Source of the DNA: Psammoneis japonica
Lineage: Eukaryota
Reading direction: 5' to 3'
NCBI GenBank assembly: GCA_008632985.1
Contig: QPGO01000105.1
Location: forward strand, 186,001 to 250,000
Length of the DNA: 64,000 bases
In this document: positions 681 through 55,470 of the stretch, piece after piece
Numbering within the stretch: position 1 is the first letter of the stretch
Layout of the letters: every line of letters starts with the position of its first letter
The notes under the pieces: generated by a model
Database searches by the model: none
The model's input: the letters and a program-made list of their open reading frames with translations, nothing else
Told to the model about the DNA's origin: nothing
Made by a program: the position numbers and the translations under genes

Positions 681-2605
681 CGTCCACACGTCGCACGGCA
701 CACAGGCTCAGAGCAAACCGGAGCAAGCGTGGTGGGACACTCAATGTGGCACACAAAATGGGAGACATTTCATGTTTCACGGATGCAGCTTCCGGGTCTC
801 AACATTCCCCTTTCGATTTTCTGTGCCGTTTTTGTGTTGTCACGGTGGAAGTGCAATGACCATGATGGTCGATTTTCACATCAATGTGAGTGGGGCCCAA
901 ATGCACTGACCATTGGAACCTCATCAAATCGATGGTGCAGAACACTGTCATGTCACCAGCGCATCTGGGCCCCACTTGCATTGCCATGAAAATCGCGACG
1001 GCATTCTCTCACTCTCATGGCTGATTTCTTTCTGCAGGCGCACCCAGAAAAGTGCTGCGCACCGATGCTGTGCAAGCGCCTGTGCTGATGAGGGGTCACG
1101 GGCTTGATTTCTAGTTTCCTTGGTGCAAAAGAGCACAGCCCTTGGCCTTGAACACCTCGTGCTCCAAAGGATGACGGCCAGCTCGGAGCTCACATGCAAA
1201 GCACACTGCCGTTGTTGGTTTCACAGTGCCGCACAGTTTTTCAGCTTGATCAGTGCAGGCTTGGTGCATTTCCATGTGAAGGAAACAATCCACCTGGCAC
1301 GCAAGCAGTGCAGCAATCGCCCAGCTCACAGACTTCCATTTGTCTGCACCGGTGCTGTTCTTGATTTCGTCTGCGCACCCGCTTGGCGGATTAAATCACT
1401 TTCTCAATGGGAAGCGAGTTGCTTTTGTCTCAGATTTTTTGAATTTTTGATTTCAAAACTTTGCACATGTGCTTCCATTGGTTCTGTTCTGTGTCCCCGC
1501 ATGTCTTGTGTCCTTGTCAGCACTGGGCTGAATCGCGCGCTTCTGCTGAATGAAATGTTGCACCAAGATCCACACAATGCCGACCGACCAACCAACCGAC
1601 GCACCACACGGCATGTGACTGACTCAAGGTGGTCATTGCGCTGTTCACATGTTCATGTCCTTTGAACAATTCAAGTGCAATGTTGTTCAATGCACAAAAG
1701 AATTTTTGCAATCAAGCATGCTGGATCAATGAAAGTTCTAATTTTTGAGTTTCGGCATCGGAGCCACCACACACAAACAAATCACACAAACAACAAAGAC
1801 CAGACTCACACTCAACACTCACAACAGCAAGCTCTCTCTCTCTCTCTCTCTCTTGTTGTGGCTTTCATGTTGCAAGAGTTCTCTTTGTGTGCAATGTTGT
1901 TTCACCCACCATGAAGCGACTCACTGAAATCAACACACAAGCCATTCTCTCCTTTGTGGAGGAGCGCATTCACAATGGAAAATTCCCAAACATTGTGACA
2001 AGGGATGTGGAGGGCATTTCATGTGCAGATCTCCAAGAGCATCAGAGTTGACGATGCACCTGTGACAAGACTGTCCGAGATGGAAACATCTGCTTTGGCC
2101 TGAAATGTGTCAATGGCAGTGATGGGGAGTCCATTTTGCTGCACGTCATTCCATGCCAAAGCGAAGAAGGCAGTGATGCTGTTCTTGCCTGCTGCACAAA
2201 CTGGCTTCTTCACCACAAAGACCTTTGGCACCTTAAGGGCACACACATTTTGGCCCAGTGTGATGATCCAGACAACAGTCTCATGGCAATGGAGGGCATC
2301 TCAATTGTCAAGGAACAGATTGACAGCAAGATTGTTGAAAGAGCAAAGAAACAAGCGTTCACGGATGCTGTTGTCAAGTTTCTTGTTGCCATTTCCAAAC
2401 ACATGGCTTTGACGGATGAGGAAGATTTGTTCGCGGTGCTGCAAGAAGCCCGGTCTGGTCACTTTCAAGAACTCAACAGATGCAAACTGGGGAAACATGG
2501 TGTGTGGGGCAAGCGTGGTGATCAGATCAAAGAAAGTTTCAATTTTGAAACCATGAAGGACAAGGCGCCCGCAAAATCTTTGCATCCCCATTTTCCAGTG
2601 CTGGG

Positions 2606-4057
2606 GTGGATGACAACAGCACCTTTGAGCCTGACTCCACTGGTGTAGAACCCAAAAGCACCAAGAATCCTGACAGCACCCTCGAGCCCAATGAAGAAGA
2701 GGAGCAAGTCGAGGAGGAGTCCATCAAAGCAAAGAAGTCTAAAGAGGAACAGCATGCCGAGGCACAGGCTCTTGCTGAGGAGTGGGCCAAGAAGAGCCCA
2801 GTGCCCATTGCAGAGCACATCAAGCAGCAGGAGCACAAAGAACCCAAGGCTCAGATGCATTTTGAGAACCTGAATCAGCAACCCCATCCCCAGAACCCGG
2901 TCCCGCTGCCAGCTGATGTCCTTGAGGAACCTGCTGGTTGCCAGCACTCCGTTGTGAGTGAAGACAAGGAAGAACACAAAGAAGGCACAGTGGCACCACT
3001 CAAACAAAAGATGAACTCACTTTGGGATGTGGCACGTCACACGATGGTTGTTGTCTGTCTTCTTGTTGCATGCACCCTCCTTGCAGGCAACGAGCCTTCC
3101 ACCAGCACTTCCTTGAGCATGAATGCACCATGCTTTGAACCTGCACCCAGATGTGAGGACCCAAGCACTGAAGCGCCACAATTGCTTTTGGACAAAGGAA
3201 TCAACACTTGTGCTCCCGGTTGCGTCTTGGAACGAGTCCCATGTCCAGAGGGCGGAATTTGCAGTGGCGGCTTTCTTCTCCTCTGCCAGGACAGCCAGTT
3301 CTTCATGGAGCCTGACCCTTGGGGCACCAAGTGCATCCTGAACAGTGGTGCGGTCGCCACACTCTCTGCCATCAAGGACACTTTGACAAATCTCACCGTG
3401 CAATGCACCTGTGACTTGGGGTGCCAGCTCCTCATGAAGAAGCATCCAGTTTTGCCAGCCAAAGTTGATGAGGACAAGGTTCCCTCGTTTGCCGTGCGAG
3501 ATGTCCAAAAGCGGGTTGACACTGACTTGGATTTGCCGCTTCTGGCTTCAAACCACTCTTTGTTTCAACTTGATGCAGAACTCCAACTGATTCGATTGAC
3601 TCGCGAAACTGTGGCCAAGGAGTTGAAAGCTCCTCTTTCGTGCACGATCTTGCACTTTGCAAAGGAGTCAGGTGTGAATGGTTGGATCTGCAGTTTGGCG
3701 AAAATTCTTTTCGACTGGGCAGTGAAGGATCCACTCATTGCAGCATCAGTTGCTGCATGTGTCATGTTGGTTCTTCATGTTGGAATGGCTCGGATCCGCC
3801 ACAAGAAGTTTCGCAACGCCATTGATGGGGTCCGTGACTTGGCCCACACCATGCTGCAAGAACAAGGTAGACCCACGGTGGTGTTGATGTTGCGTGACAT
3901 GGTGGCAAACGAATTGTGTCCTTGGTCCAGGAAGGAGCGCCGCCACTTTACGAATGCGATTTGGAAGCAGGTTGTCGCAGAAGCTAAAAGAGACCATCAC
4001 ATTCACAATTCCACTCAGAAACAATGTGGTTGCTGGCATCATTTAGGGTGGGAGTGA
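2606..4057 (+). pseudogene. Hypermutated Man1/Src1-C-terminal (LEM/MSC inner nuclear membrane)-like gene copy
   Basis: Acidic N-terminus, TM segment, Cys-rich lumenal loop (PCPEGGIC...C), second TM and C-terminal LRD...W motif resembling the MSC domain; no Tyr in 483 aa. Confidence 0.55.
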
Positions 4058-4394
4058 GGGTTGCTTCATGTTGGGCTTTGTGTGTTCTGTTGAACTTCTG
4101 CTTGTTGCTCACGCGGCATGCCTGGGCACAAGGGTTGAGAGTGGGAGCAAGCAAGCCACCAGCAACAGCAAGTGGAGGAGGTTTGGGGAGGTGGCGTCAA
4201 TTGCAAGGTGTCAATGTCACAGAGGGGAGGCAGCAGAGGCAGCTGAGTTGAGCTGAGTGCTTGCATCAATGGGGTGTCTGGCGATGGCATGGGGAGTTGA
4301 GGCTGCAGGGTGAGACAGGGAGGTGCAGCTTGCATGCTGCAGCATGAGGCGGAATTGATCTTCTGGGGCCAAGCATTGTTGGGGTGAGGAGGAG

Positions 4395-4600
4395 CAAAAA
4401 TTTGGAACTCGGCCAGCCCAACAAATGAACAAGGAGCACTCAAGATCCTTTGGAACATGTCATTGTGTTTCACGTTGTTTGCCTGCCACTTTTTACATGT
4501 GTCATTCTGAAGGACTTCATCCATGCTGCAGTTGCAACAACAACAGAATGACATGTTGCAAACAAGTGCAACTGTGCAGTTGAGTCACCGGCGCATTGCG
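4395..4600 (+). repeat. Direct repeat copy B, matches 470-680
   Basis: Direct sequence match to 470-680. Confidence 0.9.
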
Positions 4601-6399
4601 TGTGCACATCGTCGCACAATGGCATCACACTGTGGCCCTGCTCTCTCCAGCAGCAGTGCTGCAGAGAGCCAGCAGCCACTTCCTCCAGCAAGCAACAATT
4701 GTCCACGAGGAAACACCATGTTGTTCTTTTTGGGCCATGCATCGCAGTGCTGCTTCTGCTCAAAATGGCTCAGAGGGAAAAGCATCTGCGACCCACGTCA
4801 AAACATCACATCACATGGAAGCACTGCAGCAACGATGATCGCTCGTGCCATCAACCACTGCTTCACATGACAACAATGCCTCACATCATGGACCCTCCTC
4901 CACCAAGTCCAAGCATCCACTGCATTGGTGCATTGGTGCAGGTGCCGCCGGAACACCTCACGGGACACTGGGACAACTGACAGCACTGCAGCGAAGGTGG
5001 AACAGGCTTCATTGCAGGTTTCAACACTGTCGATGACCAAGTGAATGTGCAGCACACAGTCAACAACAGACTCAGTGTGGATGTCATTCCAACAGACTCT
5101 CTCCAACATCATTGGCTGTTGACAAGGTCTTGGGATTTGTGACAGCAGCATTTGCTCGTAGCAAAAATGATTTTCAGAGAGGGGGGTGCACGTGCACAAG
5201 GTCATTTGTGCTCATGCCAGCAGAAAGGTGAAGGCAAAGAAGGACTCGTGTTGCCCTTCATGTTGGGCTGTCAGAACATTCCATTGTCCAAAGATCCCAG
5301 AGAATTTGTTGCATCGCAAAGGCAAGGATCATTTTCAGAATTGGAGGTCACTGGATCAAATTCGGGGACAGAACGAAATCTGCATGGGATTGCATCCATG
5401 TCATTCTGTTGGCAAAGATGGAAGCAGTTGCTCAGAGGGGAAACAACGACAAGGGAAAACGAGTGCATCTTTTGTTCCAGTGGGACAATGCAACACCGCA
5501 TGTTGATTTGGTTCTTGTGGCCGGTGTTGATGGTGAATTCGCTCGCTCAATGCGGTTTGGAGCTTGTGCCGCAATCACCAAACTCCCCACGTGCATTTCT
5601 TTCCAGCAACAGCTGAGAGGGTCACTGCAGACCAAGGGCTTGAAAATGGTGGTCAACATTTGCAGGGGGGGCAGCTGTGGGCATCCGTTCGTCGCACTTG
5701 TGATCGCCATCCCGAGGGGACCATCTCCCGGTCATTGGTGCGCCACAGTCAAGTGGTGAAGGCTGTTTTTGAGTGTGATGGGAGTGATGATTTTGCAATG
5801 GATTTGCAATCACTTCACTGTGGGATTCGGAAGGTTTGTCAGCGTGTTTGCGCAACTCGGAAGAGATGCAGAATCCCACCGGAGTGGAGGTGAGGACTGA
5901 GCACTGGATCCGGTGGAACAGAACCTGTGGCACATGATGCTGGATGTCATTTGGGATGGGTGCAATCCGGCAGATTTCTTGAGTGAGAATGAACCTTCAA
6001 TGTTGGTGAATGATGTGGCCTGTTCGTGACTGGGAGGATGCTGAAGTGCATCTCATGGCGGAGCTAGAACAGAATCTAGAGAATTGACAGCATGCACTTA
6101 GAATCGGTACTAGAATATCTATGTTATCCTACCATCGCATCAAATTGGCATTTTATACCGTAGTCGGGCCAAAAGAAGCGATTCAATAGAGCGATCTCTC
6201 TCTAGAGGAGGTTTTTGTGGTGGCGCGAAGTCGCGCGTGAACAAAAATATGTAGAAGCAGTACCATGATGTACGGCCCAAAAAGATTAACACGGTGTTTC
6301 CTCGTGGCCAATTACTGTAACCTACTTCATACCGGCAGAACGAGCAAAGAGCAGCAACATTCAGACAAGCGTAGCAGTGTCCTCATAAGTTTCAACGAA

Positions 6400-16721: not shown

Positions 16722-17999
16722 CTACTGCTTCTCGGTAATCTTTTTCTTTTCCATTGGCACACGCGCCACCATGAGATACATGGGTGTGAAGATTTTCGAT
16801 TGTCCACCATCCGACAATCCAAAGGCTGCCTGTTGTAGCATTTGTTGCGTCTTGGACGTGCCCTTGGGTGCCAATTTGCAGAATTCCAAGGCCTTGATGC
16901 AAAAGTTCGTCAAAGGATATCCCACCGCATTGAATTGAAAGCGCTGTGTAAAGGGATTCCAACTCGGCATGAGTGGGAGCATCCACGGTTTGCCATTTTT
17001 GCCATAATCGTCCAACGCCATGTCGCGTTCGTACAAGACATCAAAACCCGCCTTGGACAAGGCTTCCAAACAAACAGAAGTGTGACAAATATCGGGGAGA
17101 CCGTCGCCTTCTTCAATCTGTTTCTTCACCTTCAAATGATGCTTGTCGTTGGGATCAAACTCATCCGTCATGCACCACTCGTAGCATGCAAAGACGGAAC
17201 CGGGTTTGAGGACACGGTAAATCTCGGAATAGACCCCGACCCGATCGGGGGCGTGACAGGTTGCTTCAATGGCATAGGCGGCATCGTAGGAATCATCGTC
17301 AAAGGGCATTTCCATAAAATCACCCTGCACCAAGCGACAATGGTCCTTGATGAGATCCTCGGCTTGGCATAGTTCATTGCCACGCGAAACTTGATAGGGG
17401 TTGAGCGTAAGACCCGTCACGTTGGCTCCGGTAAAGCGACAAATGTTACGCAACGGTCCGCCAATACCGCAGCCGACATCCAGTACTTTTTGCTCGGGTT
17501 CTCCCGTCAATGCCAATTTGCTGGCAAGCTGGTATTCATGACGACGCGTCCCTTCGTTGAAGCTCTCGAAACACCAACGAAAGGAAAAGTGAAAACTCTG
17601 TCCCCAGCCCCATTCGTAAAAGAGGGTCGCCAAGTCGTAGTAGGAATTCACCAAGGTCTTGTAGGAAGCATTCCTTTCAGAAGCGTCTTCCGCCGCGTGC
17701 AAACGATTGTACTCGTCAATGCCACTATCCACACGATCCGAACATGACAAACTGCGCTCCTAATGAAATTATTGATTAAAAAAGTGAGTGTGAGGCCCTT
17801 GCTGAAAAAACACGTCATTGGCATACAGCACGAGACCACACAGACAAGAAATATTATTTGTACTTACATGCTTTCGCAGCTGTTTGAAAAACAGCCAACA
17901 ACGACCAATCGGATCAGCGGGAGTGAGGAGCTGGACCGTGGCTAATGCAGCGGCCGATATGAGGCCAACATTGGCTGGAACGGACAAGGAAGCGCCCAT
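16722..17999 (-). CDS. SMT1: Sterol 24-C-methyltransferase (exons 17999-17868 and 17759-16722)
   Basis: YEWGWGQSFHF, LDVGCGIGGP, AIEATCHAP, YEW, IEEGDGLP; GTAAGT...TTAG intron joins in frame. Confidence 0.93.
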
Positions 18000-18242
18000 G
18001 GCTGTTTCGCTTTGTTGTTCTTTGTGGTGTGGTCGTCGGAGGGAGGTGACGTGTTTCAAAAAAATGCGGGAAACGATTCTGCCGTTAAATACTTCCGTTG
18101 CGAACATAAATAAGTATTCAACTTGAATAAAAATATTTATAAAATCTTCGAAATGATCTTCACCGCAAAGTACAGTAGTTGGAAGTCCTCGCTCACTCGC
18201 TCACTCGCTCACAACAGAAAAAATCTCCTCGACACCATCACG

Positions 18243-21200
18243 ATGAGCCTTATCGAGCCTATTGATTTGACCCACGATAGCGACGATGACAGCGTTGCTC
18301 CACCTGAAGCGGTGCCAAAACATTCGCTGCCACGGGTCGTCAAGAGTGAAGATATTGTGATTGATGACACGGGCAACGAGAGAAACGTTCAAGAAGATTC
18401 TTCTGAAAACGGTGTCATCATGGGAGGGTGGCTTGATGAGATTATGGAAGAAAGTCTGTCGCCTCCTGAAAATTCTTCTGAAGCAGATCAATATGAGGAC
18501 ACTGATCTCAATAGGACAAGCCATAAAGTGAGTGCCGAAGAGAGCGACACTGCTACTGCAACCGACAGTAGCGCTACCGTGGATGAAGCATATCACGCCG
18601 ACGAGCAACGCACGGACGATGGTCCGCCAGCCCGGGTCTCCTCCTCATCGGCCTGGTGGTCAGCCATACTCCACGATGATGATACCCCCAAGAAGGAAGA
18701 CATTACTTGTGATAACGACGATGACAGCAGTAGCAGTAATGATCATGAAAGTGTACTGGGACAAGTCAAAGAGGAAGATGCGGCTGAGATGACCAATGGC
18801 GACAACGACGATCCACACGAGCACGTTCCAAAAGAGGTTGGAACCCGCGTCTATGCGCGTTGGGAGAAAAACAACGAATGGTATCACGGGACGGTAACGC
18901 AAATACACAATAATCTTTTTACGGTAAGATTGTGACTGTTCGTTTTGTGGAAACTTAACTGGCCCCCGTTTTCTCACTGTCTAATTTTTTTTCGGACATA
19001 GGTGAAGTTTGACGACGGCGATATTGCGCACAATCTGACTAGGCGCGATGTATGGGCGGGAAAGGTGCCACCGGCGAAACGACCACCGTCTGCTGCTAGC
19101 GCCAAGAAGAGGAACAAGAACAGCACCAAGAAGAAGGCCAACCGCAAGAAGAAGGCCAACCGCAAGAAGACTGGCACTTTCAAGAAGAACGCCAAAAGTA
19201 CAAACAAGACATCTCAGAAGGCAGTCTCAGTCACGACGCCTAAGGATTTTATGAATCAAGTCGAGAATCAACTCCAGAGCTTTCAGCAGAGGCGTTGTTC
19301 AAAGTGTGAGTTGTGCCTTCGAAAGGACTGTCAAGAGTGTCTGGCTTGTGCGAGCAACAAGAAAAATGGCGCAGCCCGTGGCAATATCCAATCAAAGCTA
19401 GTGTGTCTACAAAAGGTAAGCGTAGCTTTGTTATATCATTGCATTGCAACATGGATGACGACTCACTAGAAGTCAACACCCTTTCAGATTTGTTGTAACA
19501 TTGAAGAGGCGCAAAAGACTCTTCCTGCACCGGGGCTTCCAGCTGAATGGACCTTCAGGTTTGAGAAACAAGGCGTCGTTCTTTTCAATGCCGCCGGAAC
19601 ACGCTACTCTTCATGGGAGCAAGCCAAGAAGCACTACGGCGCTATCTACAAGTCGATTTCGTCGCATTTGTTTTACAAGTCCGTCGGCATGGCGAAAAAA
19701 GTGGCAGGAGCTACAGGAAATGGAAAGGCAACCACAGCGGCGGAAAAGGCACCGGAAAGAGCTACGCCGCGCCGAAAAAGGGAAGTGATGGAGGAATCCT
19801 CAACGGACAGTCAAACATCAAAGCGTGCCTGCAAAGCGTGTTCTGGAGAGGGCAATTTGATCAGCTACGGTGCGTGTAGCCTAGAAGAATTGTATAAACG
19901 CAGGTGCGGTTCCTGTGAACTCTGCTTGAAAGAAGAATGCGGAGTATGCTCTTCTTGTGTTCGAAACCGGAGCCATGCGGATAGCAGTAATGGCGGCAAG
20001 GAGGTGTGCTTGCGCAAGGTAGGTCACGCATGGTGAAACGGATAGCGTTGCTGCTTCTTTGGGTTCTAACATGCAGCATACATTTTTCGTGCAGATGTGC
20101 TGTCAAATTCCGGGAGGAGAAAAGGCACAACCTGCAATCGGTTTTCCCGCGGGGTGGCGCTTCTATTTCGAGAATCCAACTACACGCTCGCATTCGTCCA
20201 AGTATGAAAAAGGTTTAGAAGGACTCGTACTGTGCCCGAATAATGGCCGCAACTACCGAACGGTCACCAAAGCCGTCAACCACAATCCAAAGGCACTGGA
20301 CGCGGTAAGGATTCGCCAAGAGTTTTTTGTTCATGTGGGCGTTGACGTCTTAAATGAACCTTTGCATGATGATTTGGTCGGAAAATCGCTTATACAAGAA
20401 TGGAATGATTTGGAGGGCCGAAGCAAAGTTGTTTATGGTACAGTGGTTGATGTTGAAGCAAGTCTAGGCGACGACGATGAGAAAATGGTTACGATAGAGT
20501 ACAACGAGTCCTCCATTGTGCGAGCCAATAGGACTGTGAGTGCCTGCGGTTCGAAATTACCGAAAAGGCGATCATTGAAACTACCGCTCGCTTTGGGCGC
20601 GATCAATCGCTGCCGGACCAAGATAAACGAGAACCGTACATTTGTTGATAATTCTCCGATTTATAGTCAGGGCACAGGATATACTTGGCTTATCCCCGAA
20701 GACCGTCATGAAGAATTGTTGGACGCCGGGCATGGCGTCATGCTCCCACGTTTGACACTTACCTTTTGCGGCTTCAGTTTGGTCTTTTCAATTCAGGAAT
20801 CAACCATTCCCGGAGCAGGATACGGGGTGTTTGTGAACGCAGAAAGTTTGGTTGCTTCTGCTTCTTCAGGAAAGGAGCCAAAATTTGAATTGCAGAAAGG
20901 CAAACTTTTGGATTTGGGCCGGTACGCTCCTTTTCGTCTACAAGACAGAAAGAGAGATTGCGTCTTCATGGTGAAGAACTACGTGCATTCCTTCAAGTGC
21001 GAAGAGTGGTGTTTCGACACTGGTGAGTCACCCTACAAGAAGCATGCATGTGCATCAACACTCCTGTACTTACGCATTTTGCTGCTCAGACGACAAAGAC
21101 TTCGACTTTGACATAACTGATGATTTCACAGGCACCCTTCACGATGAAGCCAGATGTCACATCCCGGCCTACGTGAATGAATGTAAGTCCACTGAAATCC

Positions 21201-21724
21201 CAACAGTTCAGGCCGAACATGATCCTGAGGGTAACGTGCACTACTTGTTTGGGGTGGTAGCAGGGGAAGGCCTCACTCTGCCAGTTGGCATCGAAACTGA
21301 ACTTTTTGTGAACTATGGCACCAAGCACGAGTCGGTGAGGGTTCGAAAAGGTTACTCGGAGCTCCCATTTGCAGAGAAGCAGCAAAAGCTGCAAGAGATG
21401 GAGAAGGACGACGAGGAATTTCTGGATGAAATCAGGAAATTCTCAGTGACAGATGTGGGTGAATGCGTCGATTTCTTTCATGGGATGTTTGCAGATGGCC
21501 AGAATCGTCTTCTGGCTGCTGGCAAGCTGGGAATAGATGCAGGGAAGCGGGCCCTTGTTGTTTCTAAGTTGCTTGAGGAGCGAGCAAGGAAGCTGAGAGA
21601 CTCCTCTGGCAAAGAAGTTTCCCTGTCATTGTTGGATTCCTCAGCGTCACTTGTCATGACTCTGGAGACACTTTTTGGGAAGCATCGCTTTCTTCGAAAT
21701 GAAATGATGATGAGCAATGTCTAA
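18243..21724 (+). CDS. Tudor-(zf-CXXC/MBD-like)x2-SET chromatin protein, paralog 1 (5 exons; introns ~18924-19001, 19416-19488, 20019-20094, 21023-21089)
   Basis: GTRVYARW..WYHG..VKFDDGD; RCGSCELC..CGVCSSC..CLRKMC; GFPAGW..GRNYRT; STIPGAGYGVF, YVNE, ELFVNYG; GT-AG introns. Confidence 0.8.
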
Positions 21725-22406
21725 ATGCAACACATTGAATTCAAGGGTGCAAGGGAAAAATTTGGATGTTTTGTGTCGTGACACAAGTTTTGGAAAAGTT
21801 TCTCGGCCCTGCCAGAGATTCCACATTGGAAAGTGAGCACAGCTTGTGTGGGCATTGGGTGCTGAGAAAGAGCACAAGTGCTTGTCAGATGCGTGCACAA
21901 TCCTTTGCCAAGCTGTGCACCCGGGTGTGCCCCATGAAGCCCAAGTCGGGGGGAGGGCTTTTGCCTCGAGATTGCAAAACGGAAGTCAATGCACTCTTGC
22001 TGGCGATCAGGAGATTGTGCTGTCCTTCTTTTGCAGCAACTGTTGAGTCAGAAGATTTCTGTAAAGCTTTGTCACCAGAGCACAAGTGTAGATGGTGTGC
22101 CCACACTGACAGCACACTGTACAGTGGAGGCGAGCAAAAACAAACACACGGCCAGACGCTGAAAAGCCGTTAAATGATTCCGTTGTGAATTAAAATCTTT
22201 TCATACGATGCTGAAGTAAACATTTCTTTTAATTAAATATAAACATTGCCACCAAAATATATATATAAAATATAAGATCCATTTCAGCGATTGCGTGATG
22301 ATCCGCGCGCGGGCCTCAAACACAGCTCAAATCTCAAATCTCAAAAAATAAAATAATCTCGGCATACAGGCAGCAAAGCTATTTTACAGCTAGTGCCGGT
22401 GATACC

Positions 22407-25400
22407 ATGGACAGCGACGGCAATCGTGACTGTGCTCTCCCTATGGAAGCGCCTTCCTCCTCCATTGCCGTAAAAGTCAAGCAAGAAGACGTTGTGGATG
22501 AGAATTCGCGAGATGAGAGCGCAAACACGGGTCGAAGAAGCAGAAGGAATGATCATGCTGAAAAAGATGCCGTGGTCGCGGTTCATACCTCGGCTGTTAC
22601 TACGGAACAACAGCATCACGACGATGACGATATGAACAATACATGCCGTCGGGTTAGTGCCGAAGAAGGTGAAGATACAACGAGCAGCAGCGGTGGTACT
22701 TCTGAAGGAAATCATTCCCACGTGTACAGCGTGACAGATCTGTTGATGACGCCCTCGCCGCCTTTCTTCCCTTGGAAGAGTGACAAGAGCGACACCAAGA
22801 TGGAAAGAATTCTTAGTGAAAGTGACGATGGCTACAACAGCAGCGATGAAGAAAATTCCCAGAATATCCTCAAGACAAGCAACACGCAGAAACATATCAT
22901 GGACAGTGACGAGGAGGAGGAGCAAGTGCAAGCCACCCCAAAGTCCCTTCCATACGAAAAGGAAGAAGGCACACGTGTCTATGCCCCATGGGGTAAAACA
23001 GAGGAATGGTATTGGGGTACCATCACCAAACGAAAAAAGATCAAGGTGCAGGGACAACAGAATTCCAGAAATGTGTATACCGTAAGTTTATGCGAGCTCT
23101 GAAGTGTTTGACTTTTTTGTTATCTAACTCCGTGCCTTTTGTACTGACATATAACAGGTTGAATTTGATGACGGTGACATATCTGAGGATATACCGTCGC
23201 ACCATGTGTGGACGATTGCGGCGTACGAAAAGTTGCTGAGCGAAAAGGCACCGCCAGAAGCATATGGCCGCAAAAGCAAGAAGGACGAGGCAGTCGAGGT
23301 CCTGACGGCTAAGGAGTTTTTGTATCAAGTCAAGAAGCAGCTCCAGAGCTTTCACCAGAAGCGGTGTTCAGAGTGCGAGTTGTGTCTTCGAATAGACTGT
23401 CAAGAGTGTCTGGCATGTGCGACCAACAAGAAAAACGACGCGATCACGGTCGACGACAAATCGAAGCTCGTTTGTCTACAGAAGGTACGCACAACACAAT
23501 CGTGATTGTTCACTTTGATTGCATTATACCTTGCCGCAACACAATCTAAACAAGTCACTCCATTCTTTGTCCTTACCCTAGATTTGCTGTAGCATTGGCA
23601 AAGCGCAAAAGGCTCCTCTACCGGCGCCCGGCCTTCCTTTGGGATGGACCTTTATCATGGAAAAACCACGAACGGGTAGCCGATGCAAGAACGGTCTCGT
23701 TCTTTATTCTCCCACTGGTAAACATTTCTTTTCTGTAGAAGCAGCCAAGCGCAACAACAAAAGTATTTTGAAATCGATTTCGCCGCATTTGTTTAACAGG
23801 TACATCGGTATGTCAGAACAAGCAAACAATGATGTAGCCTCTCGAGCTGGAAAGGTCAAAGCAGCTGACCGCCACGCTATGAGCAGCAAGAACGTGCTAC
23901 GACAGCTTTATGACCGTGCTTGTGGAGCGTGTGATGTTTGTCTAATGGAAGAATGCCAAAAGTGTGCTTCTTGTAAAAGTACAACAGGTGTCAGATCAAT
24001 GGTTTGTTTACAAAAGGTAAGAAGGAAAGTTGTGAAATATTGATCCCGTTGACCACTCGTTCTTACACACGTACGATATGCGTTGGCTTGTAGATCTGTT
24101 GCCAAATTCCCGAGAGTGAGAGAGCTCTTCCTATTCCAGGCTTTCCAAATGGTTGGACCTTTGTTTTGGAAGAGCCCCGGAGTGCAACCGATAGTGTGTT
24201 GGACAGGGTTGTTATTTCGCGTGATAAGTACCAACAGAAACGCCTTCGGTCCGTCAGCGCCGCCAAGAAGTTCTGCCCTAATGCTCTTTCAGGCGTGTGC
24301 CAAGACGAGTTCCATCGTTGTATCGGCGCGGACGACAAGGACACGAGTGACATTGAGTCTTCCGACGAAGACGACGAATCTTACTCGGACGAAGAGTCCA
24401 CTATCAATGTTGGATCGGATGTCTTCTGTGCTTGGCCAAATGAGCACTGGTACAAAGCTCATGTGACCAAAAAATGGACTGATGCTAGCGGCAAAGTCTT
24501 GTTTGACGTAAGTAACACAGTAGTTGCGGTTGTACATGGCAGGGTCCAATCTTTTTCTAACTGTTGTTTTCCTTCTAGGTCTGGAGCGTCGATGGCTATA
24601 CGCTCAAAGGAGTACAGGGCCGAGATATCATGTCTGTTGATCGCTACTTTTCTCAAGCTTCGTCCCGTAAGCAGAAGCGTCGGATTACGAGGGAGATTGG
24701 TCGATACACGCCGGACAATACTGCCACGAAATGTGCGCGAAAAGATGATGCTGGCAAGGGCTTTTCCAATAGCTACAGTTTGAAAGAGTTGTACCAACGT
24801 CGGTGCCGAACCAATTTCTGTGAGCTCTGCGTGAAAGTAGACTGCGGAGTATGCGCTTCGTGCGTTCGAAATGGGGGCTGTGACGATGAGGACGGCAAGG
24901 AGGTGTGCTTGCGCAAGGTTAGTCATGATGGCGGATTTGAGTGTATTGCATCACTTTGCTTTTCAGTAGCGCTCATCGGTTACTAACATATTTTTGCTTA
25001 TTTGCTCCAGATGTGCTGCCGCATTCCGAACGACAAGAAAGCGCAACCCGCAGTTGGTTTTCCCGCGGGATGGCGCTACTATTTCGTCCAACCGAAAACT
25101 GGTTATCTTTCCTCTAGGTACCAGAAAGGGTTGGAGGGACTCATGCTAAGCTCGACAAGTGGACGCACCTATCATTCGGTCAACGGAGCCATAAATCACC
25201 ATAAAAAGGCGCTAGATCCTGTCAGGATCCGCAAGGAATTCTATCAGCATGTGGGCTTCGCCATCGCGAACGAGCATTTGCATGATGATTTGATCGGACA
25301 GCGGTTTGTCCAAGAATGGGCTGACGTGGATGGTCGCAAGAAAATTGCGTATGGCACAGTCATTAGTGTCGATGAGAGTCGTGGCGAAGACGAAGAGGAA

Positions 25401-26649
25401 ACGGTTTTAGTCGAATACACCGACTCTTCGATATTGCATGCAAACGCGATGGTTAGCAAATGTTGGTCGAAGGTACCCCAAAGGCTTTCAGTGAAACTCC
25501 TTTTTGCACTGGGCGCAATTGGACAGTACCGGAAAGAGATCAATACGCACCCTGCATCTGTTGAGAGTCCGCTTATTCAAAATGAAAACCAAGGATATAT
25601 TTGGCTTACTCCAATGGACCGTCATGAAGAATTGTTGGACGTCGGGGGCGGCGTGAAGCTCCCTCGTTTGGCACTGACCCTTCGCGGCTTTTGTTTGGTG
25701 TTTTCTGTTCGGGAGTCGACCATCCCCGGAGCAGGTTATGGTGTCTTTGTTCGAGCCGAAGACATGACTTCGGAGAAAAGGACGAACTTTCGATTGAAAC
25801 AGGGCGAGTTCTTGGATATGGGCAGGTACGCTCCGTTGCAGCCAGAAAACAAGGTCAGAGATAGTGTGTTTATGATGAAGAGCTATGTGCATTCCTTCAA
25901 GTGTGAGACGTATTCTTTCAATTCCGGTAAGTCAGCAGTCGAGTTGAGCGAGTTACCTGGTATGTGTTTTACGCCTTTCTAAAGTTGTGCTTTCGCATTC
26001 AGAGGATGAGGACTTTATGTTTGACATTACGGACGATTTCACGGCAGCTCTAAATGATGTGGCGAAGCAGCATATCCCAGCCTATGTGAACGAATGCAAA
26101 AAAGCTGACATCCCGACAGTGCTGGCTGAGTCTGATCCGGAAGGCAACGTTCACTACTTGTGTGGGGTGAGAACTGGGGAGTTCAATCTGGCTGTAGGCG
26201 TTGAGCAGGAACTTTTCATCTACTACGGCAAAGGCTATGAGTCTGCAAGGCTTCGAAATGGTTACTCGGAGCTCCCCTTACAAGAGCAGCAGCGTAGGCT
26301 TCAAGAGATGGAAAAGGATGACGACGAATACCTGGACGAAATCAACACCTTTTCGGTCGAAGACGTCAGCGCTTGTGTTGCTTTCTTCCGCCGAATGTTT
26401 CCAGAGGGCGGTAATTGGCATGCTGCTGCTGACAAGCTTGGAGTACCCGCAGGGAAGAGGGCTCTTGTCGTTTCCAAACGGCTCGCGAAACGAGCAATTG
26501 AGCTGAAGGAGGATGGTGAAGCTGTCCATTTTACCTTCATCGACGCCTCGAAAAAGCTTGTGGAGCTCCTAGAAACGCTTTTTGGCGAGGGTCGCTATCG
26601 TGCAATCGAAGGTCCTTGCGTGGTTCAAAGTAGTAGCTCGCTGGTTTGA
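22407..26649 (+). CDS. Tudor-CXXC-MBD-SET paralog 2 (three CXXC/MBD modules and a second Tudor-like domain), multi-exon
   Basis: PGLPLGW..LYSPTGKHFFS; VFCAWPNEHWYKA; STIPGAGYGVF; ELFIYYG. Confidence 0.8.
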
Positions 26650-27161
26650 TTTGTACGGAATGGGTTTGAGCGTGGCGGTCGAGGCTCGTCCGCGATAGTT
26701 TGCGATCTTTGTGTATTTTAGCATGTGTTTCAATCAACAATTTTGTTCAATAATATCGTCAAAGTAGTGAGGTGTTGTACAGTGGGCATGTCCTTGTCGT
26801 TCTCTACGGTCACTTTCGTATCGACCGATGCTGCGTGCACCGACTTGCAAAGGAAGCCATTCTGCCGGAAGACTAGCTGGGCGCTCTCCTGGTGGCATGA
26901 AATGTAGACAACATGAGGTGGTCTTTCGACAGCACATACCCTTGAGTCGACCTACATAGAGCCAGCTTCATTTTGCTTTCGTCTCTGAGATCGCATGAGA
27001 CACCGCATCATGCTTTTCACCCCGCGACAGACCTCCCAAGCCGAGAGTGCGCGCGCGCCGCCGAAATACTTTTCCGGGTTACTCTTTACTGAGCCGCGCC
27101 ATCCTTTTGCCCGCAAAACGAAAAGAGCTCACACTCATAAAACACTTGACACTGCGACACC

Positions 27162-30100
27162 ATGAACAGCAACTCCGATAATGTCGTTGGTTTGACCATG
27201 GATAGCGACGGCGGTGCAATACCTGTGGTACAGCCGTTTTTGTCTGAAGTAAGGAGTGAAGTAAAGAGTAAAGAAGATGATGATGAGACACTTACGGACA
27301 ACGACGAAATGTCTCGTTCTTCCTCTTTTGCTTCTGCTCAAATCCATATGGAAGAGGAAGAACAAGACAATAAGATGTCCAGAGCCATATTGGCTCCCAA
27401 GAAGCAAGGGAAAATTCAGAAGGGCACTCGCGTCTATGCTTTGTGGGCAACAGACGAGTGGTATTGGGGTGTAGTGGCGGACGTACAACGAAAGCATGTG
27501 GAGGGTCGGTCCAATGCAAGAATCTTTTATACCGTAAGGATTGTGTTTGTCGTTGGAAAGAAATTCGCGCGCTTTTGTTCTCACTACTCTGTGTGTTGTA
27601 TCCCAAATAACAATTTATATGCAGGTGAAGTTTGATGATGGTGATGTCAAAGACAATTTGACTTCTCATCATATATGGACCGAGGAAGCTTACGAAGATT
27701 TGTTCCGAAACCTTGAAAACCATAACAACAGCAACGAAGACAAGAGCGCTACTACCACCCGTAGCAATGGCAGCCCTGTCACCACCATCGTCAGCAGTGA
27801 CAGTAGTAACGACAGCCCTGCCACCACCAGCAGTAGCAGTGACGACAGTGCTACCACCCCCGCCACCAGCAGTAGCAACGACAGTAGCACCACCACCAGC
27901 AACGACAAGCGATGGACCCTTGCAGATTTGTATCGTCGTCGTTGTCAAGCGTGCGACTTGTGCAAGGCTCCAGAATGTGGTCAGTGTGTCACTTGCAAGA
28001 GACGTTCTCAGCCCAAGCAAATTTGTCTTCAAAAGGTAAGCGCGTTCGTGAGGCTATTGTTGCTGAGGCTCATTGCTTCGAATTGGTAGATTCTTACAAC
28101 TGTGACATTGCCATTGCACACAGATGTGTTGCATGATTGATCCCCAAAACAAGGCGCAGCCAGCCAAGGGGTTTCCGGCTGGATGGAAATTTTACTTTGC
28201 CGCACCCAAAGAGATCGTTTTCGTGACTCCCAATTTCGGTCGCAAATTCAGGTCGATTACATCGGCTGCCGGCATATGCCGCATGAAGGGTGATCAAGTG
28301 AGCACGTTCTACAAGCACGTTGGGCTCGTCCAAGACGGTGACGACGTTAACACCGAGCTCGATTGCAGCATCTCCTCTTCGTCTGACGATGATTACGATT
28401 CAGATGATGAATCCTACGTGGACAAAGCGGTTGATCGCCACTTCGCTTTAGCTTCATCCCGTACTCGGAATAAACCGAAAAGAAAGGCTACTGGTCAGTG
28501 CTCGACGGATACTAGGGAGACGAAACGTGCCCAAAAAGAGGGTAGTCACTACAAGGGCGGTTTGAACGGACACAATCCATGCAGCCTGGCAGAGTTGTAT
28601 CAACGCCGTTGCGATGCATGTGCACTCTGCATGAAAGCGGACTGCGGAGCATGCGCGTCGTGTGTTCGAAATGGCAGCATGGCCGATGGTAGCAACAAGG
28701 AAGTTTGTCTGCGCAAGGTTAGATTTGTATTACTATTTCTGCTTCTTGTCAGACGAACGCGTCCTTGTGACTCACTTTCTTTTTGCCGTTTCGTTTTAGA
28801 TGTGTTGTCTAATTCCTGTCGAAGAAAAGGCACAACCGGCAGTTGGGTTCCCCGCGGGATGGCGTTTCCATTTTGTCGTGCCAGAAAAGTCACTCTTGCT
28901 TCTCTCCAGGTATGAGAAGCGTTTAGAAGGGCTCAAGATTGTCCAGCAAGTGGTAGCAGCTACTGTTCAGTCGAGCGAGCCTTCAATCGCCACAGTAGGG
29001 TTCTGAGCAACAAGGATTCGATTCGCAAGGAATTCCTCGAGCACATGGGATTAGCTGTCCCAAACAAACATCAGCATCATGATTTGGTCGGAAGACCGAT
29101 TTTCCAAGAATGGACCGATTTACAAGGCCGTAACAAAGTTGTGTATGGTTCAGTGATAAGCGTTGATAGTAGTCATGGCGAAGACGAGGAGGACATGGTT
29201 ACGGTGGAGTATAGTGACTCTTCAACATGTGATGCAAACACAATGTTGAGCGTCTGCGGGTCGAAAGTGCCTAAGACACGTTCACTGAAACTTCCGATTG
29301 CAGTGGGCGCGATCAACGCATACCAGAGAAAGAAAAGCCAGCATTGCGAATCTGTCGATTTTCCTCCGTTTCACAGTCAATACCTAGGATATACGTGGCT
29401 TACCCCCGAATACCGCAAAGAAGAGTTGTTGGACGTTGGGCATGGCGTCACGCTCCCTCGTTTGACTCTTACCATTTTCGGCTATCGTTTGGTCTTTTCA
29501 GTTATGGAGTCGACCATTCCTGGTGCAGGATACGGGGTCTTTGTGAAGGCCGAAGAATTGGTGTCTTTCACTCCGCCAGGAACAAGAAATGAGGCGACTT
29601 TCAAGATGGAACAAGGCCACCTCTTGGATTTGGGCCGGTACGCTCCTTTTCGGCTACAAGACAGAAAGAGAGATTGCGTCTTCATGGTGAAGAACTACGT
29701 GCATTCCTCGAAGTGCGAAGAGTGGTGTTTCGACACTGGTAAGTCACCTGACAAGAAGCAATCCGGCGCATCAACACTCCTGTACTTACGCATTTTGCTG
29801 CTCAGACGACAAAGACTTCGACTTTGACATAACTGACGATTTCACAGGCACTCTTCACGATGAGGCGAAACGCCACATTCCGGCCTATGTGAATGAATGT
29901 AAGTCTACTATGATCCCAACAGTTCAGGCCGAGCATGATCCCGAGGGCAACGTGCACTACTTGTTTGGTGTGGTGGCGGGAGAAGGCCTCACTCTGCCAA
30001 TTGGCATCGACACTGAAGTCTTTGTGAACTACGGCACCAAGTACGAGTCCGTGAGGGTTCGAAAGGGGTACTCGGAGCTCCCCTTAGAAGAGCAGCAGCG

Positions 30101-30434
30101 TAAGCTGCAGGAGATGGAAAAGGATGATGAGGAATATCTGGACGAAATCAACACCTTTTTGGTCGAAGATGTGGCTGAGTGTGTCGCTTTCTTTCATCGT
30201 ATGTTTCCGCCGGGTGAGAAGCGGTATGTTCTGGCTAATATGCTTGGACTACGTGCTGGGAAACGGGCAATTTCGGTTTCTGAAAAGCTTGAAGAACGAG
30301 CTAGGGAATTGAAGGACTCTGGCGAAACAGTCCCTTTGTCATTGATCGACTCTTCGGCACAGCTGGTGGAAATCCTAAAGACCCTCTTTGGAAAGGATCG
30401 CTTTCGTCCGATTGAACATCCGAGCGTCGTCTGA
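27162..30434 (+). CDS. Tudor-CXXC-MBD-SET paralog 3, multi-exon (apparent 1-nt deletion near 28940)
   Basis: GTRVYALW..WYWG..VKFDDGD; RCQACDLC..CGQCVTC; GFPAGW..GRKFRS; SET motifs with EVFVNYG. Confidence 0.8.
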
Positions 30435-30592
30435 AATGATGGCGCACCAAGTTGAATAGGCTGAGAGCACAAAGATACGTGTATGGAGACACCTTGATCT
30501 ATTGTACGTGAAAGCGTAGGGAGAGCATGCAGTGGGTGTTTTGTACTATAGCATGTGTTTCAAACAACAGTCTTGTGCAACTTCCAATGTTT

Positions 30593-31655
30593 CTACTCCT
30601 GTAGTGTATCATGACGAACATGTACAACAACGCGGCTTTCCTTGTTTCCCTTGAAGTGATGCTTTGTAATGCACATGTCCTTGTCGAGATAGAGAACATC
30701 AATATAATCAATATCCTTCAACTTTCGCAATACCCGTTGTAATAAAAGCAGCGGAATACTGGGAAGTTTCCAAAACTTCCAAGCCGTGCCCAGCAAGGCT
30801 TCGCATGAAATCCTACGAAGAATCACTTTCTTGTCAAAGACGCTGTAATTGTCTGCAACAGGATTGTACTGTGTTTTGAAAAAGTCCAACGTTCAACACC
30901 AGTTAGAATTTTTTAATTCTCCATCGCCATAGGCACAAGCTTTCACATCTCACCTTGATTCTTGACTGCAATTGGCCCAATCCAAGCAGAACTCTGCTAT
31001 CTACTTGGATCGTCAAGTCATCTGTATTGAAAGATGTGGTTCGCTTCGCTTTATTCGTCTTTCGCTTCCATTTTGAGATCCAATCACCCTTAATCAAATC
31101 GGAGTCGTATCCTTTTCCTTGACACGAGAGCAAAGCCACCAAAGGTTCCAAATGCTCTATTTCCTCTACATTTCCACTAACTTTTAACAGGTCACCAAGC
31201 AATACGCCCTTTGGATCGGCCGCCAAAGATTGAACGAGCTCCCAACCACCCAATTGGGCAACGTTGTAGTTGTCCACCAAGGCGGAACGGATCTTTTCCA
31301 AGTTTTGAGCTGCTAGCTTCCCCGTTGCTTTTGTCTCCAAGGCATACCATCCTCCATTTTCAACGATATTTAAGCTCTTTCCAAGAGAACGACGATACTG
31401 TTGGAAATTTTGCAACGTCGCCGGTGTTCGCACTATCGAGATCGTAAATTGAAAAAAATGTGAGACGAGGCAATCAAAAATCAAAAAAACATATTCAGTG
31501 ATGAATAATAGTAAAAAAGATCCCAGAAAATTCGATTCACGACACCATACACAACGAAAAGAAATCTCACAAGGAGCGAGGGCTACGGTACGATGAAGCA
31601 ATCCGCAAGTAGCAATAATCAACCCCACGATTCGAGTTTGGAAGGTATTCTTCAT
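30593..31655 (-). CDS. PAP-fibrillin-like (plastid lipid-associated) protein, spliced
   Basis: Signal-peptide-like start, LIKGDW, C-terminal IDVLYLDKDMCI resembling the fibrillin YLD motif. Confidence 0.5.
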
Positions 31656-31719: not shown

Positions 31720-33310
31720 GATGTGAAATTTTGTGTGGGTGGCGGATCTTGTGGCGCGCGTGTGCACAGCAGCGTGCTGGCGTGCGTGGCTTCTTGCGCG
31801 ATGGAACGCGCAACGCCCTAAAATCGATCAATGAACTCCCCCTGGTAGAGACTGGCATCTGGGTGTGGTGTCTTGAATCTCGTTGGTGCCTAAACTCAAG
31901 CAAGATCTAGATCTTGAAAGTTGCCACTTGCACTGACAAATGGGGTAATCAACCAAGGGCAATTTTCTGATGTGTGGTTTGCATGTGTTGTCAGGCAGTT
32001 GTTTTGTGTTTTCTCCAATGTGGCATGAACAGATCCTCTCCGACACAGCAATGCAGCGCCTGTTTGCATCATCAAGGTGGAACAGCATCCCACTGTACTC
32101 ACCAATGCTGCTGTTTCCCACATGTTGCACTTGCTGATGCCGCTGTTTCTCACACCAGAATCATCACAGTGAGTCAAGTCAAGTGCACATCTGGCTCATC
32201 GCACAAAAAGATGTGCGCCAGCTGTCCCACCCTTGAAAGCCATGTTGTCTTCAAACTCACTTTCAACAATGACAAGCTTTGGCATTTGACCCATCAAAGT
32301 TGCAAGACAGCTGCCACCAAAGCTCACCTCATTGTCTCTGAAAGATGTCTTGTGCAAAGTGACAGTTTGCCCTGAAATTGTGGCTGAATGCTGCACAGCA
32401 GTCAGCAGCCCACCTCTGCCAGTGCCAACTGCTTCATTCCTGGTAAAAACACCATCTGTCACTGCCACCTGCAAAGCATCCTCAATGAACAGTCCACTGC
32501 CAGCATGCAACTTCTGTCCATTGAAAAAGATGGAGAGTTTTGGATGAGTGTGCTGTCTGCGGTTTGGATGAACAAGTTTCCACCTCCAAGGTCATGACGA
32601 CCTTCGTCGAATGAGCAGTCCAGCACCCTGTGATTGCCATTTGCAAGAACCTCTGCCACATCCTTCTTTGGTTTTCCCTCCTCTGAGACCAGCGCCAGCA
32701 AGGGAAAAATTGTTTCCAGACACGAGAAGATTTCTGTTGTCACCCGTGCTTGCCATCAAGCACATTTCTCAGATTCACAGCAAAGTGTCACACCTGACTG
32801 AGCAACGTTGATGGCAGATTGAAGATGGTGTTGCAGCTGTGTTTCCTCCACAGAAAGACACAACAGAGTCTTTTTTTGCATTGCCTGCTTTGGATTGAAG
32901 GTTGGAAAAGGTCGAGACACAAGAACCAGATGTCGGTGTGCGGCAGGATGGAGTTGGAGTCGGCTCTGGCAAAGGGGCACGTCGCTGAAAGAAGCAGTCC
33001 AAAGGGGTGACGCAGGATCCATCACAGACATGTCATCATCAAGGAACTTCTCCCAAAAGTTGTTGCTTTCAAAATGTGTTTCATTGGACATGCAGAGTTC
33101 TCCCTCTGCATCTTCTTCTGCTTGTGCTTTTCCTGCTGTTCTGCTGTTTTTGGATCACTCCGCTTGCACAGCATGAAGTTTGTCGCCTGCATTGCTTCAT
33201 TGTCAAACAGCACTGTGGCAGCCAACCAGCATGTCCTGTACATCCCATGATCATGCATCGTGATGGATTGACACTCATTTCTTTCATCGGTTTGTGAGGA
33301 GACTGGTTTT
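31720..33310 (-). pseudogene. TpA/CpG-depleted block with a degraded beta-helix (Pmp/pectin-lyase-like FxxN...GG repeat) gene
   Basis: FTRNEAVGTGRGG, FRDNEVSFGG and FEDNMAFKGG in ORF 32196-32510; fragmented frames; TA nearly absent. Confidence 0.55.
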
Positions 33311-55469: not shown

Positions 55470-55470
55470 C

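Follow-up and report, generated by a model that had tools for sequence, protein, structure and literature searches.

A tandem trio of diatom genes combining Tudor, repeated CXXC-MBD and predicted SET/PR-fold domains, a candidate family of chromatin readers and methyltransferases

A 64,000-nucleotide (nt) stretch of the Psammoneis japonica genome (assembly GCA_008632985.1, contig QPGO01000105.1, positions 186,001 to 250,000 of the forward strand; hereafter the window, within which all positions are counted) was analyzed for a group of genes that an initial annotation, made from the letters of the DNA, had described as three tandem paralogs with a Tudor-(CXXC-MBD)n-SET architecture. The window is eukaryotic, with a G+C content of ~47-49% and short GT..AG introns. 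Between 18243 and 30434 on the (+) strand, long open frames switch frame at short intervals, and splicing at GT..AG introns of 67-97 nt connects them into three genes, termed G1, G2, and G3, all of whose features likewise lie on the (+) strand. G1 (18243-21724) begins with the ATG at 18243 and has 5 exons (18243-18923, 19002-19415, 19488-20018, 20095-21022, and 21090-21724) that splice to an open frame of 1062 amino acids (aa). G2 (22407-26649) has 7 exons (22407-23081, 23158-23484, 23582-24016, 24094-24507, 24579-24917, 25011-25926, and 26003-26649) encoding 1250 aa. G3 (27162-30434), whose stop codon ends at 30434, has 5 exons (27162-27533, 27625-28035, 28124-28717, 28800-29738, and 29806-30434) encoding ~981 aa and carries a 1-nt frame break in the window sequence at 28943/28944. 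The first Tudor domain and the SET-like region each contain one intron, at the same places in G1, G2, and G3, and introns cut every CXXC finger just 5' of its last cysteine pair.

The gene models were compared with contigs from two public sequencing runs of one sample, X1 and X2, aligned to 18000-30600. The library type of X2 is unrecorded ("DNA?" being a guess); because its contigs lack introns, X2 was read as transcript-derived, a processed DNA copy being the unlikely alternative to a transcriptome. Eight of the 15 predicted introns were confirmed, each skipped exactly in X2 contigs. These comprise introns 1 and 2 of G1 (78 and 72 nt) and all six introns of G2 (76, 97, 77, 71, 93, and 76 nt), the latter removed in one 3823-nt contig spanning 22379-26691. 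The three tandem paralogs are thus borne out by the gene models and X2 splice joints, and the spliced state of the contigs indicates that G1 and G2 are expressed. X2 contigs leave 26841-28945 uncovered, with near-zero cover beyond, and are uninformative on G3 expression either way. The frame break of G3 is located inside its second MBD; in an X1 DNA contig (depth 58), one additional T after 28943 keeps the frame open, so that the break most likely reflects an assembly error or an allele in the window sequence. That G3 is a pseudogene is rejected in view of this intact frame and of a ratio of nonsynonymous to synonymous substitution rates (dN/dS) of 0.22-0.28. Nine single-base differences separate the window from the X1 and X2 contigs.

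The spliced proteins share one domain order: an acidic/basic disordered N terminus, Tudor, two to three CXXC-MBD modules (two in G1, three in G2, two in G3), a beta-barrel, a SET/PR-fold domain, and a helical bundle. A lysine-rich stretch in G1 (aa 262-283) resembles a nuclear localization signal and may serve in nuclear targeting. Pfam profiles run on 17 exon-level pieces of the window gave sub-threshold matches only; because introns split the window's domains, the analysis was run via homologs, obtained by querying with G1 exon 4 in an exhaustive HMMER search and counted as cluster representatives. The Tudor domain of G1 (18837-19055; aa 199-245) is split by intron 18924-19001; its first half, as an exon piece, scored 16.8 bits with Pfam Tudor_5, and the spliced domain aligned to Tudor_5 regions of homologs with E values of 1e-7 to 2e-11. 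The first Tudor of G2 (22965-23211; aa 187-243) and the Tudor of G3 (27420-27678; aa 87-142) aligned to the same regions with E values down to 2e-13 and 7e-13, respectively, so that across the trio the spliced Tudors align exactly to homolog Tudor_5 regions at E 1e-7 to 2e-13 in a 9-protein database. Tudor_5 was detected at E<=0.01 in 8 of 23 long homologs and exceeded the Pfam cut-off of 31 bits in three (P0088, 39.2; P0113, 37.3; P0087, 41.1), and P0113 also matched 53-BP1_Tudor at 22.5 bits against a cut-off of 22. Through these homologs, a curated Tudor profile hidden Markov model (HMM) supports the Tudor assignment for the predicted window proteins. A second, divergent Tudor-like domain in G2, overlooked by the initial annotation, lies between modules 2 and 3 (24409-24632; aa 585-635; split by intron 24508-24578); it gave one weak local match (E 5e-5, 9-protein database) and was otherwise called by eye.

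All seven CXXC fingers of the window have eight cysteines. In G1, finger 1 (19296-19496; aa 326-368) is interrupted by intron 19416-19487 ahead of the last cysteine pair and scored 20.9 bits with Pfam zf-CXXC, and finger 2 (19905-20103; aa 505-545), split by intron 20019-20094, scored 26.3 bits with its last cysteines outside the exon piece. Fingers 1 (23365-23590; aa 295-337) and 2 (23921-24102; aa 448-482) of G2 show the 8-Cys pattern at 20.7 and 18.5 bits; in finger 3 (24804-25019; aa 693-733), C-x4-C replaces the first C-x2-C, the only such case among the seven, and the exon piece gave no Pfam match. In G3, finger 1 (27943-28132; aa 231-264) has a short linker of 9 residues and scored 20.6 bits, and finger 2 (28610-28808; aa 424-462) shows the 8-Cys pattern, with no Pfam match on the exon piece. 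The five scoring pieces (18.5-26.3 bits) fall just under the zf-CXXC cut-off of 26.5 because introns remove the last cysteines. Among the long homologs, zf-CXXC was detected in 9 of 23, one of them above the Pfam cut-off. A profile of 25 homolog CXXC-MBD modules, searched against Protein Data Bank (PDB) sequences, returned 27 matches, 26 of which are CXXC proteins; DNMT1 was best (E 1.5e-6), and KMT2B, KDM2A/B, FBXL19, CXXC4/5, CFP1, TET1/3, and MBD1 were included. The consensus of this profile has a 2-residue gap at part of the DNMT1 KFGG motif. The two cysteine clusters and the match to known CXXC proteins place the fingers in the CXXC class. Separately, homolog P0088 (1622 aa) contains at residues ~470-800 four further CXXC-like 8-Cys units N-terminal to its Tudors; a repeat segment distinct from MBD comes after them, which gives the family a second type of CXXC-based repeat.

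Each finger is followed directly by an MBD-like domain, and six of the seven were combined in a profile (A3). The MBDs of G1 lie at 19497-19691 (aa 369-433) and 20104-20343 (aa 546-625), the second being homologous to residues 1-85 of model m0f3dd5988f5d; those of G2 lie at 23591-23812 (aa 338-411), 24103-24330 (aa 483-558), and 25020-25259 (aa 734-813). The first MBD of G3 (28133-28327; aa 265-329), which is the first A3 member, has a short hairpin and keeps the "FRS" arginine, and the second (28809-29053), which contains the frame break, was delimited by DNA alignment to G1 and G2. The Pfam MBD model (PF01429, cut-off 21 bits) was not reached in window pieces, the best match being the first MBD of G2 (14.4 bits, E 0.03); it matched one of the six A3 members at E 0.008 (which one is unspecified), one of 48 homologs at E 0.09, and none of the 23 long homologs. 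Searched against PDB sequences, A3 returned MeCP2/ARBP MBDs in 10 of 11 matches (E 0.05-0.4).

The composite CXXC-MBD unit was examined in an AlphaFold model of a Seminavis protein (predicted local distance difference test [pLDDT] 91.0, predicted template modeling score 0.83). Compared with 48,161 representative chains, the model matched 34 at Z>=2, the top nine being three MBD and six CXXC structures; the best match was MBD2 (Z 4.9, root mean square deviation [rmsd] 2.8, 59/64 residues aligned), and the 34 also include MBD1, MBD4, AtMBD6, the SETDB2 MBD, and MeCP2. In Foldseek, the first 30 listed rows were all MBD chains (E 0.015-0.8, probability up to 0.99). These matches to the homolog model point to an MBD fold. 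The literature searched contains no description of a unit in which a CXXC finger packs straight onto an MBD fold and which recurs two to three times in one protein.

The SET/PR-fold domain is located at 20677-21367 in G1 (aa 737-944; split by intron 21023-21089), 25593-26277 in G2 (aa 925-1127), and 29387-30083 in G3, the fold being assigned in all three through a homolog. An AlphaFold model of homolog P0006, based on a 48-sequence family alignment, has a pLDDT of 90.6; the protein is 47% identical to G1 exon 4, and its SET domain is continuous over residues 190-390. Foldseek returned 14 matches at E<=1e-3, all of them SET proteins (SET7/9, EZH2), with PRDM9 and MLL1 just below, and the best E values, 1.9e-4 and below, belonged to SET7/9. 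In VIA-align, which is independent of Foldseek, the top 16 of 16 rows were SET or PR domains (Z 8.3-9.8), led by the PR domain of PRDM3 (Z 9.8, rmsd 2.4, 115/119 aligned) and including EZH2 (9.6), SET1, SET8, and SET7/9 (9.5 each), and PRDM9 (9.2). As the Z scores of SET7/9, SET1, SET8, EZH2, and PRDM proteins lie within 1 of each other, no subfamily is favored. On the homolog model, both searches thus support a SET fold. The nearest ESM Atlas clusters, which are of diatom SET proteins, score 0.87; this falls below the 0.9 line and provides a lead only.

SET domains are defined by a GxG motif, an N-H-x-C motif, and the tyrosine of an E-L-x-F/Y-D-Y motif. At least 90% of the 48 homologs conserve GxG, Asn-Glu, His-Tyr, and a Glu with a Tyr five residues on (E-x4-Y), and 34, 33, and 34 of 35 family-invariant positions are kept in G1, G2, and G3, respectively. 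The G1 motifs GxG (aa 784-786), N-E-C (aa 881-883), and E-L-F-V-N-Y (aa 922-927) would correspond to the SAM (S-adenosylmethionine)-pocket GxG, N-H-x-C, and catalytic-tyrosine motifs, as mapped by inspection rather than from superposed coordinates.

Two further regions were overlooked by the initial annotation. Between the last MBD and the SET/PR-fold domain lies a conserved beta-barrel, seen as strands plus a helix in the homolog model for G1 (20365-20616; aa 633-716) and aligned in a further alignment (A4) for G2 (25281-25532; aa 821-904; 47% identical to the G1 barrel) and G3 (29075-29326; 52% identical to the G1 barrel). The barrel with its helix (model residues 100-185) gave no Pfam match and no meaningful PDB sequence match. 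C-terminal to the SET/PR-fold domain is a helical bundle, corresponding in G1 (21368-21685; aa 945-1050) to helices 394-505 of the homolog model and placed by alignment to G1 and to that model in G2 (26278-26595; aa 1128-1233) and by alignment in G3 (30084-30407); only unspecific helical structure matches were obtained for it.

The HMMER search returned 274 family representatives at E<=1e-3, of which 155 reached E<=1e-10 and 45 reached E<=1e-30; the top match is 47% identical to the query. An organism name was attached to 10 of 30 looked-up clusters, and all 14 organism-named homolog records are from diatoms, spanning three diatom classes: Bacillariaceae sp. (2), Seminavis robusta, Cylindrotheca fusiformis (2), Proboscia alata, Skeletonema menzelii, Mayamaea pseudoterrestris, Attheya septentrionalis, Entomoneis (2), Nitzschia sp., and Epithemia clementina (2). 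The lineage specificity proposed earlier is upheld by these records, and the family is provisionally regarded as diatom-specific. In a literature full-text search, with subscription journals and supplements outside its scope, the architecture was undescribed in diatoms. A 52-row family tree has several deep branches and places G1-G3 in one clade (SH-aLRT [Shimodaira-Hasegawa-like approximate likelihood ratio test] 100), sister to P0006 (99). The C-terminal halves of the three genes are 58-66% identical in amino acids, with a dN/dS of 0.22-0.28 (G3, 0.28 versus G1 and 0.22 versus G2) and a synonymous divergence (dS) of 0.8-1.3, called saturated; G1, G2, and G3 are old paralogs under purifying selection. 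The SET cores of G1 and G3 are 87-93% identical, and short X1 contigs map to the same place in both genes (20963-21120 in G1 and 29654-29797 in G3) at depths of 101-125 versus ~58, a near-identical stretch that fits partial gene conversion. Among 150 listed representatives, ~23 begin at residue 1 exactly at the start of G1 exon 4 (Met-Cys-Cys), which suggests that the intron before the last cysteine pair of the CXXC finger is widely conserved and that open reading frame (ORF) callers start at the methionine of this Met-Cys-Cys.

The window also contains three long tracts poor in TpA: 501-6000 (14 TpA in 5.5 kb, with an internal 84% repeat), 31751-33250 (8 TpA in 1.5 kb), and 49501-55750 (15 TpA in 6.25 kb; CpG observed/expected ratio [O/E] 0.09), the last partly 69% identical to 48667-49434 and with no ORF of at least 250 aa inside. 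Across the three, TpA O/E is 0.01-0.23 and CpG O/E 0.09-0.48, with a 1.6-2.0 excess of TpG/CpA, a double depletion that C-to-T change at CpG and A-to-G change at TpA would fit. A short tract at ~21250-22000 (TpA O/E 0.05-0.22, CpG 0.41-0.62) takes in the final 300-470 nt of G1 coding sequence together with ~300 nt of the spacer between G1 and G2; the last exons of G1, G2, and G3 contain 11, 21, and 19 TpA, respectively. The remaining G1-G3 sequence is ordinary, like the surrounding genes (CpG O/E ~1.0, TpA ~0.55), and where G3 or G2 has TA and G1 differs, TG and CA are not the main forms in G1. A functional tie between the trio and these tracts was considered and found no support beyond the adjacency of one tract to G1. 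Adjoining G1 on the (-) strand, a 345-aa open frame (16722-17759) is, by eye, a candidate SAM-dependent sterol C-methyltransferase.

The Tudor-(CXXC-MBD)n-SET architecture is accordingly real, as judged from Tudor_5, the CXXC profile, MBD fold and profile, and, for SET, the fold search only, and it partially overlaps several known systems. Like the trio, the animal H3K9 methyltransferases SETDB1/ESET and SETDB2 have Tudor, MBD-fold, and SET-fold domains in the same N-to-C order; the best Pfam Tudor match of the trio is the SETDB1-type "Tudor_5", and the fold matches include the SETDB2 MBD. In contrast, SETDB1 has a triple Tudor where the trio has a single one (two in G2), and SETDB1/2 have one MBD where the trio has repeated MBDs, each fused to a CXXC finger. 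SETDB1/2 also have Cys-rich pre-SET and post-SET regions and a bifurcated SET domain, whereas the trio lacks the Cys clusters and has no evident bifurcating insert; furthermore, the SET domain of the trio is unrecognized by the Pfam SET model, and its family is diatom-only among named members. By these defining features, the predicted proteins would not belong to the SETDB1/2 subfamily.

Vertebrate MBD1, with two to three CXXC fingers, combines MBD with several CXXC domains as the trio does, and most fingers of the trio lack KFGG and KQ, as do CxxC-1 and CxxC-2 of MBD1. However, MBD1 has a single N-terminal MBD with the fingers at a distance, whereas in the trio each finger directly precedes its own MBD in a predicted rigid unit, and MBD1 lacks the Tudor and SET domains that the trio has. 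KMT2A/KMT2B (MLL1/2, H3K4) resemble the trio in uniting CXXC and SET-fold domains in one protein; the KMT2B and MLL CXXC domains are among the sequence and fold matches of the family, and the MLL1 SET domain is among the fold matches. In contrast to KMT2, no Pfam PHD, FYRN/FYRC, or other KMT2-type domain was found in the trio pieces or scanned homologs, the CXXC fingers are not type-1, and MBD and Tudor domains are present. The background given in the initial annotation, which credited SETDB1 with Tudor, MBD, and SET, was incomplete in this respect, as MBD1 already combines MBD and CXXC, and KMT2A/B combine CXXC and SET (PMC3685328).

Among PRDM proteins (PRDM3, PRDM9, PRDM5, PRDM2), the PR domain of PRDM3 is the best structural match, and the classical histidine of N-H-x-C is absent, as in the trio. 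Searched against PDB sequences, the family profile aligned its G-x-G-V-aromatic stretch to the PRDM16 PR domain, non-significantly (E 0.43), and the E-L-x-V-x-Y-G of the trio presumably resembles the PRDM C-terminal motif. Unlike PRDM proteins, G1-G3 have no C2H2 array (two distant homologs gave sub-threshold C2H2 matches), and PR membership is not shown, the Z scores being within 1 of non-PR SET domains. Plant SUVH proteins (SRA-SET), among other histone methyltransferases coupled to DNA methylation, also join a DNA-modification reader to SET, and SUVH6 is among the fold matches (Z 8.1); their reader is SRA rather than CXXC-MBD, and the pre-SET and post-SET regions are missing from the trio. 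By defining features, the trio is outside SETDB1, KMT2, and MBD1, and probably outside PRDM, and it would work most like a SETDB1/MBD1 hybrid.

In the interpretation favored here, the trio arose by lineage-specific tandem expansion in a family of nuclear chromatin proteins that occurs throughout diatoms, and its proteins act by a three-part mechanism; taken whole, this proposal is given an even chance. The Tudor domain would dock on methylated histone lysine; the repeated CXXC-MBD modules would make multivalent contact with DNA, probably CpG-containing, through non-canonical contact residues; and the SET/PR domain would use S-adenosylmethionine to methylate lysine on a nearby nucleosome. Through the protein, a signal in the DNA and a histone mark already in place would thereby both lead to new histone methylation. 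Module number and DNA-contact loops (KQ in a single finger, "FRS" in 3/6 MBDs) vary among the paralogs, which suggests that targets are divided among them. The components of this proposal differ in strength. That these are chromatin-bound reader proteins with a true SET fold is very probable, and the odds of histone methylation by the SET domain, as proposed here, are roughly balanced. For the direction of the output, there is a modest lean toward a repressive, SETDB1-like effect over an activating, KMT2-like one.

Several observations weigh against this interpretation. The two structure models were built for homologs rather than window proteins. At the level of DNA reading, the CpG-state reader proposed in the initial annotation, with a possible role in setting heterochromatin boundaries, found support in the domains present and not in their residues. 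Type-1 CXXC fingers, which bind CpG, have KFGG plus KQ or RQ in the DNA-binding loop; type-2 fingers, such as CxxC-1 and CxxC-2 of MBD1, lack a functional loop and bind protein; and type-3 fingers have a short linker plus HQ (PMC3685328). KFGG is found in 0/7 window fingers, and KQ precedes the seventh cysteine in just one (finger 1 of G3) and is absent from the other six, most fingers having K-E or K-L at this place. The window fingers therefore do not show the signature of type-1, non-methylated-CpG-binding CXXC domains and, as judged from their loops, resemble the non-DNA-binding type-2 fingers of MBD1. Individual MBD matches are weak (Z <5, Foldseek E >=0.015, HMM E >=0.05), although low scores are expected because the domain has only ~65 residues, and the searches agree. 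In MeCP2, two arginine fingers, an aspartate, and a tyrosine contact methyl-CpG. Aligned with these residues, A3 has Pro for the Arg of "KQRKSG" and Gly and Val for the Asp and Tyr of "YDVY", and the Arg of "AFRSK" is kept in three of the six window MBDs (no. 1 of G3, no. 2 of G1, and no. 2 of G2). Given non-canonical contact residues in both CXXC and MBD, the window modules are not predicted to read CpG, unmethylated or methylated, in the canonical way, and other DNA binding, or protein binding, is possible for them.

A second group of adverse observations concerns the SET/PR-fold domain. Pfam SET (PF00856) matched 0/17 window pieces, 0/23 long homologs, and 0/48 homologs even at E<=10, no Cys cluster that would mark a Cys-rich pre-SET or post-SET flanks the SET region in the spliced sequences, and the histidine of the classical N-H-x-C is Glu family-wide. 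The nearest fold ties include PR domains, many of which have little or no activity. HMM searches thus left both MBD and SET without the support on which the initial annotation had staked its reading, whereas structure-based searches recovered both; on the homolog model, the SET fold is hidden from HMM annotation.

These features are shared by the main rival explanation, in which the proteins are non-catalytic readers or scaffolds whose SET/PR domain serves for binding or is a pseudo-enzyme, like that of many PRDM proteins, and which recruit other chromatin enzymes through Tudor, CXXC, and MBD in the manner of MBD1. Beyond the altered N-H-x-C, the missing post-SET, and the silent Pfam model, this explanation draws on the top-scoring fold match being a PR domain, that of PRDM3, and on the likeness of the CXXC fingers to type-2 fingers of MBD1, which are protein-protein modules (PMC3685328). 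Furthermore, in the SETDB2 MBD structure among the fold matches (8hfp), the bound partner is a Cys-rich protein domain instead of DNA. However, the GxG, the Asn, and the tyrosines of His-Tyr and E-x4-Y remain at least 90% conserved and are kept in G1-G3, as expected from purifying selection on an active site, and PRDM9, a close fold match, also lacks the histidine. PRDM9 is an active enzyme. On balance, the non-catalytic explanation is considered doubtful, though it is the strongest of the alternatives.

Alternatively, the proteins may be active lysine methyltransferases with mainly non-histone substrates, like SET7/9, with the readers serving only to localize them. The Foldseek E values and the place of SET7/9 in the top VIA-align tie (Z 9.5) are consistent with such a role, but the tie extends to SET1, SET8, EZH2, and PRDM proteins, and each of the three reader types, Tudor, CXXC, and MBD, belongs to chromatin or DNA recognition, so that this alternative appears quite improbable. 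That the genes are instead mobile-element cargo with captured reader domains, as could be imagined for a large, multi-copy family with genes in tandem, one abutted by a TpA/CpG-poor repeat-like tract, and as a preprint notes for transposon-captured MBD readers, is very unlikely indeed in view of the conserved intron positions among G1-G3, a dN/dS of 0.22-0.28 with saturated dS, coding-region dinucleotides like those of ordinary genes around, and no Pfam transposase, reverse transcriptase, or integrase match on the 17 exon pieces.

The favored interpretation, in which the trio reads chromatin and DNA and writes histone methylation, bears on a gap in diatom heterochromatin biology. According to a review, Phaeodactylum has no H3K9 methyltransferase except possibly E(z) (PMC8566409), and a 2011 survey did not find SETDB1 in two diatom genomes (PMC3145265). 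Diatoms silence transposons by means of CG methylation, H3K9me2/3, and H3K27me3; DNMT5-dependent methylation overlaps both histone marks and coincides with H3K9me2/3 on transposons (PMC9998398). The diatom H3K9 writer is not known, nor is the way in which DNA methylation is tied to histone methylation (PMC8566409, PMC9998398). With a SET fold invisible to HMMs joined to a SETDB1-type Tudor and to the CXXC-MBD unit, the family is a candidate for the missing diatom heterochromatin methyltransferase, one that would sense CpG status and lay down a silencing mark, H3K9 methylation or another; this specific assignment is unlikely, if less so than a mainly non-histone role. Even if the SET domain is inactive, the family would still be a lineage-specific multivalent chromatin reader, and also a warning that HMM-only catalogues of protist chromatin enzymes are incomplete, as Pfam-based surveys would have overlooked its SET fold. 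Were the family the missing methyltransferase, the CXXC-MBD unit would represent a novel type of composite sensor for CpG state. Expressed in the case of G1 and G2 and conserved across three diatom classes, the family is a concrete candidate to fill the H3K9-writer gap.

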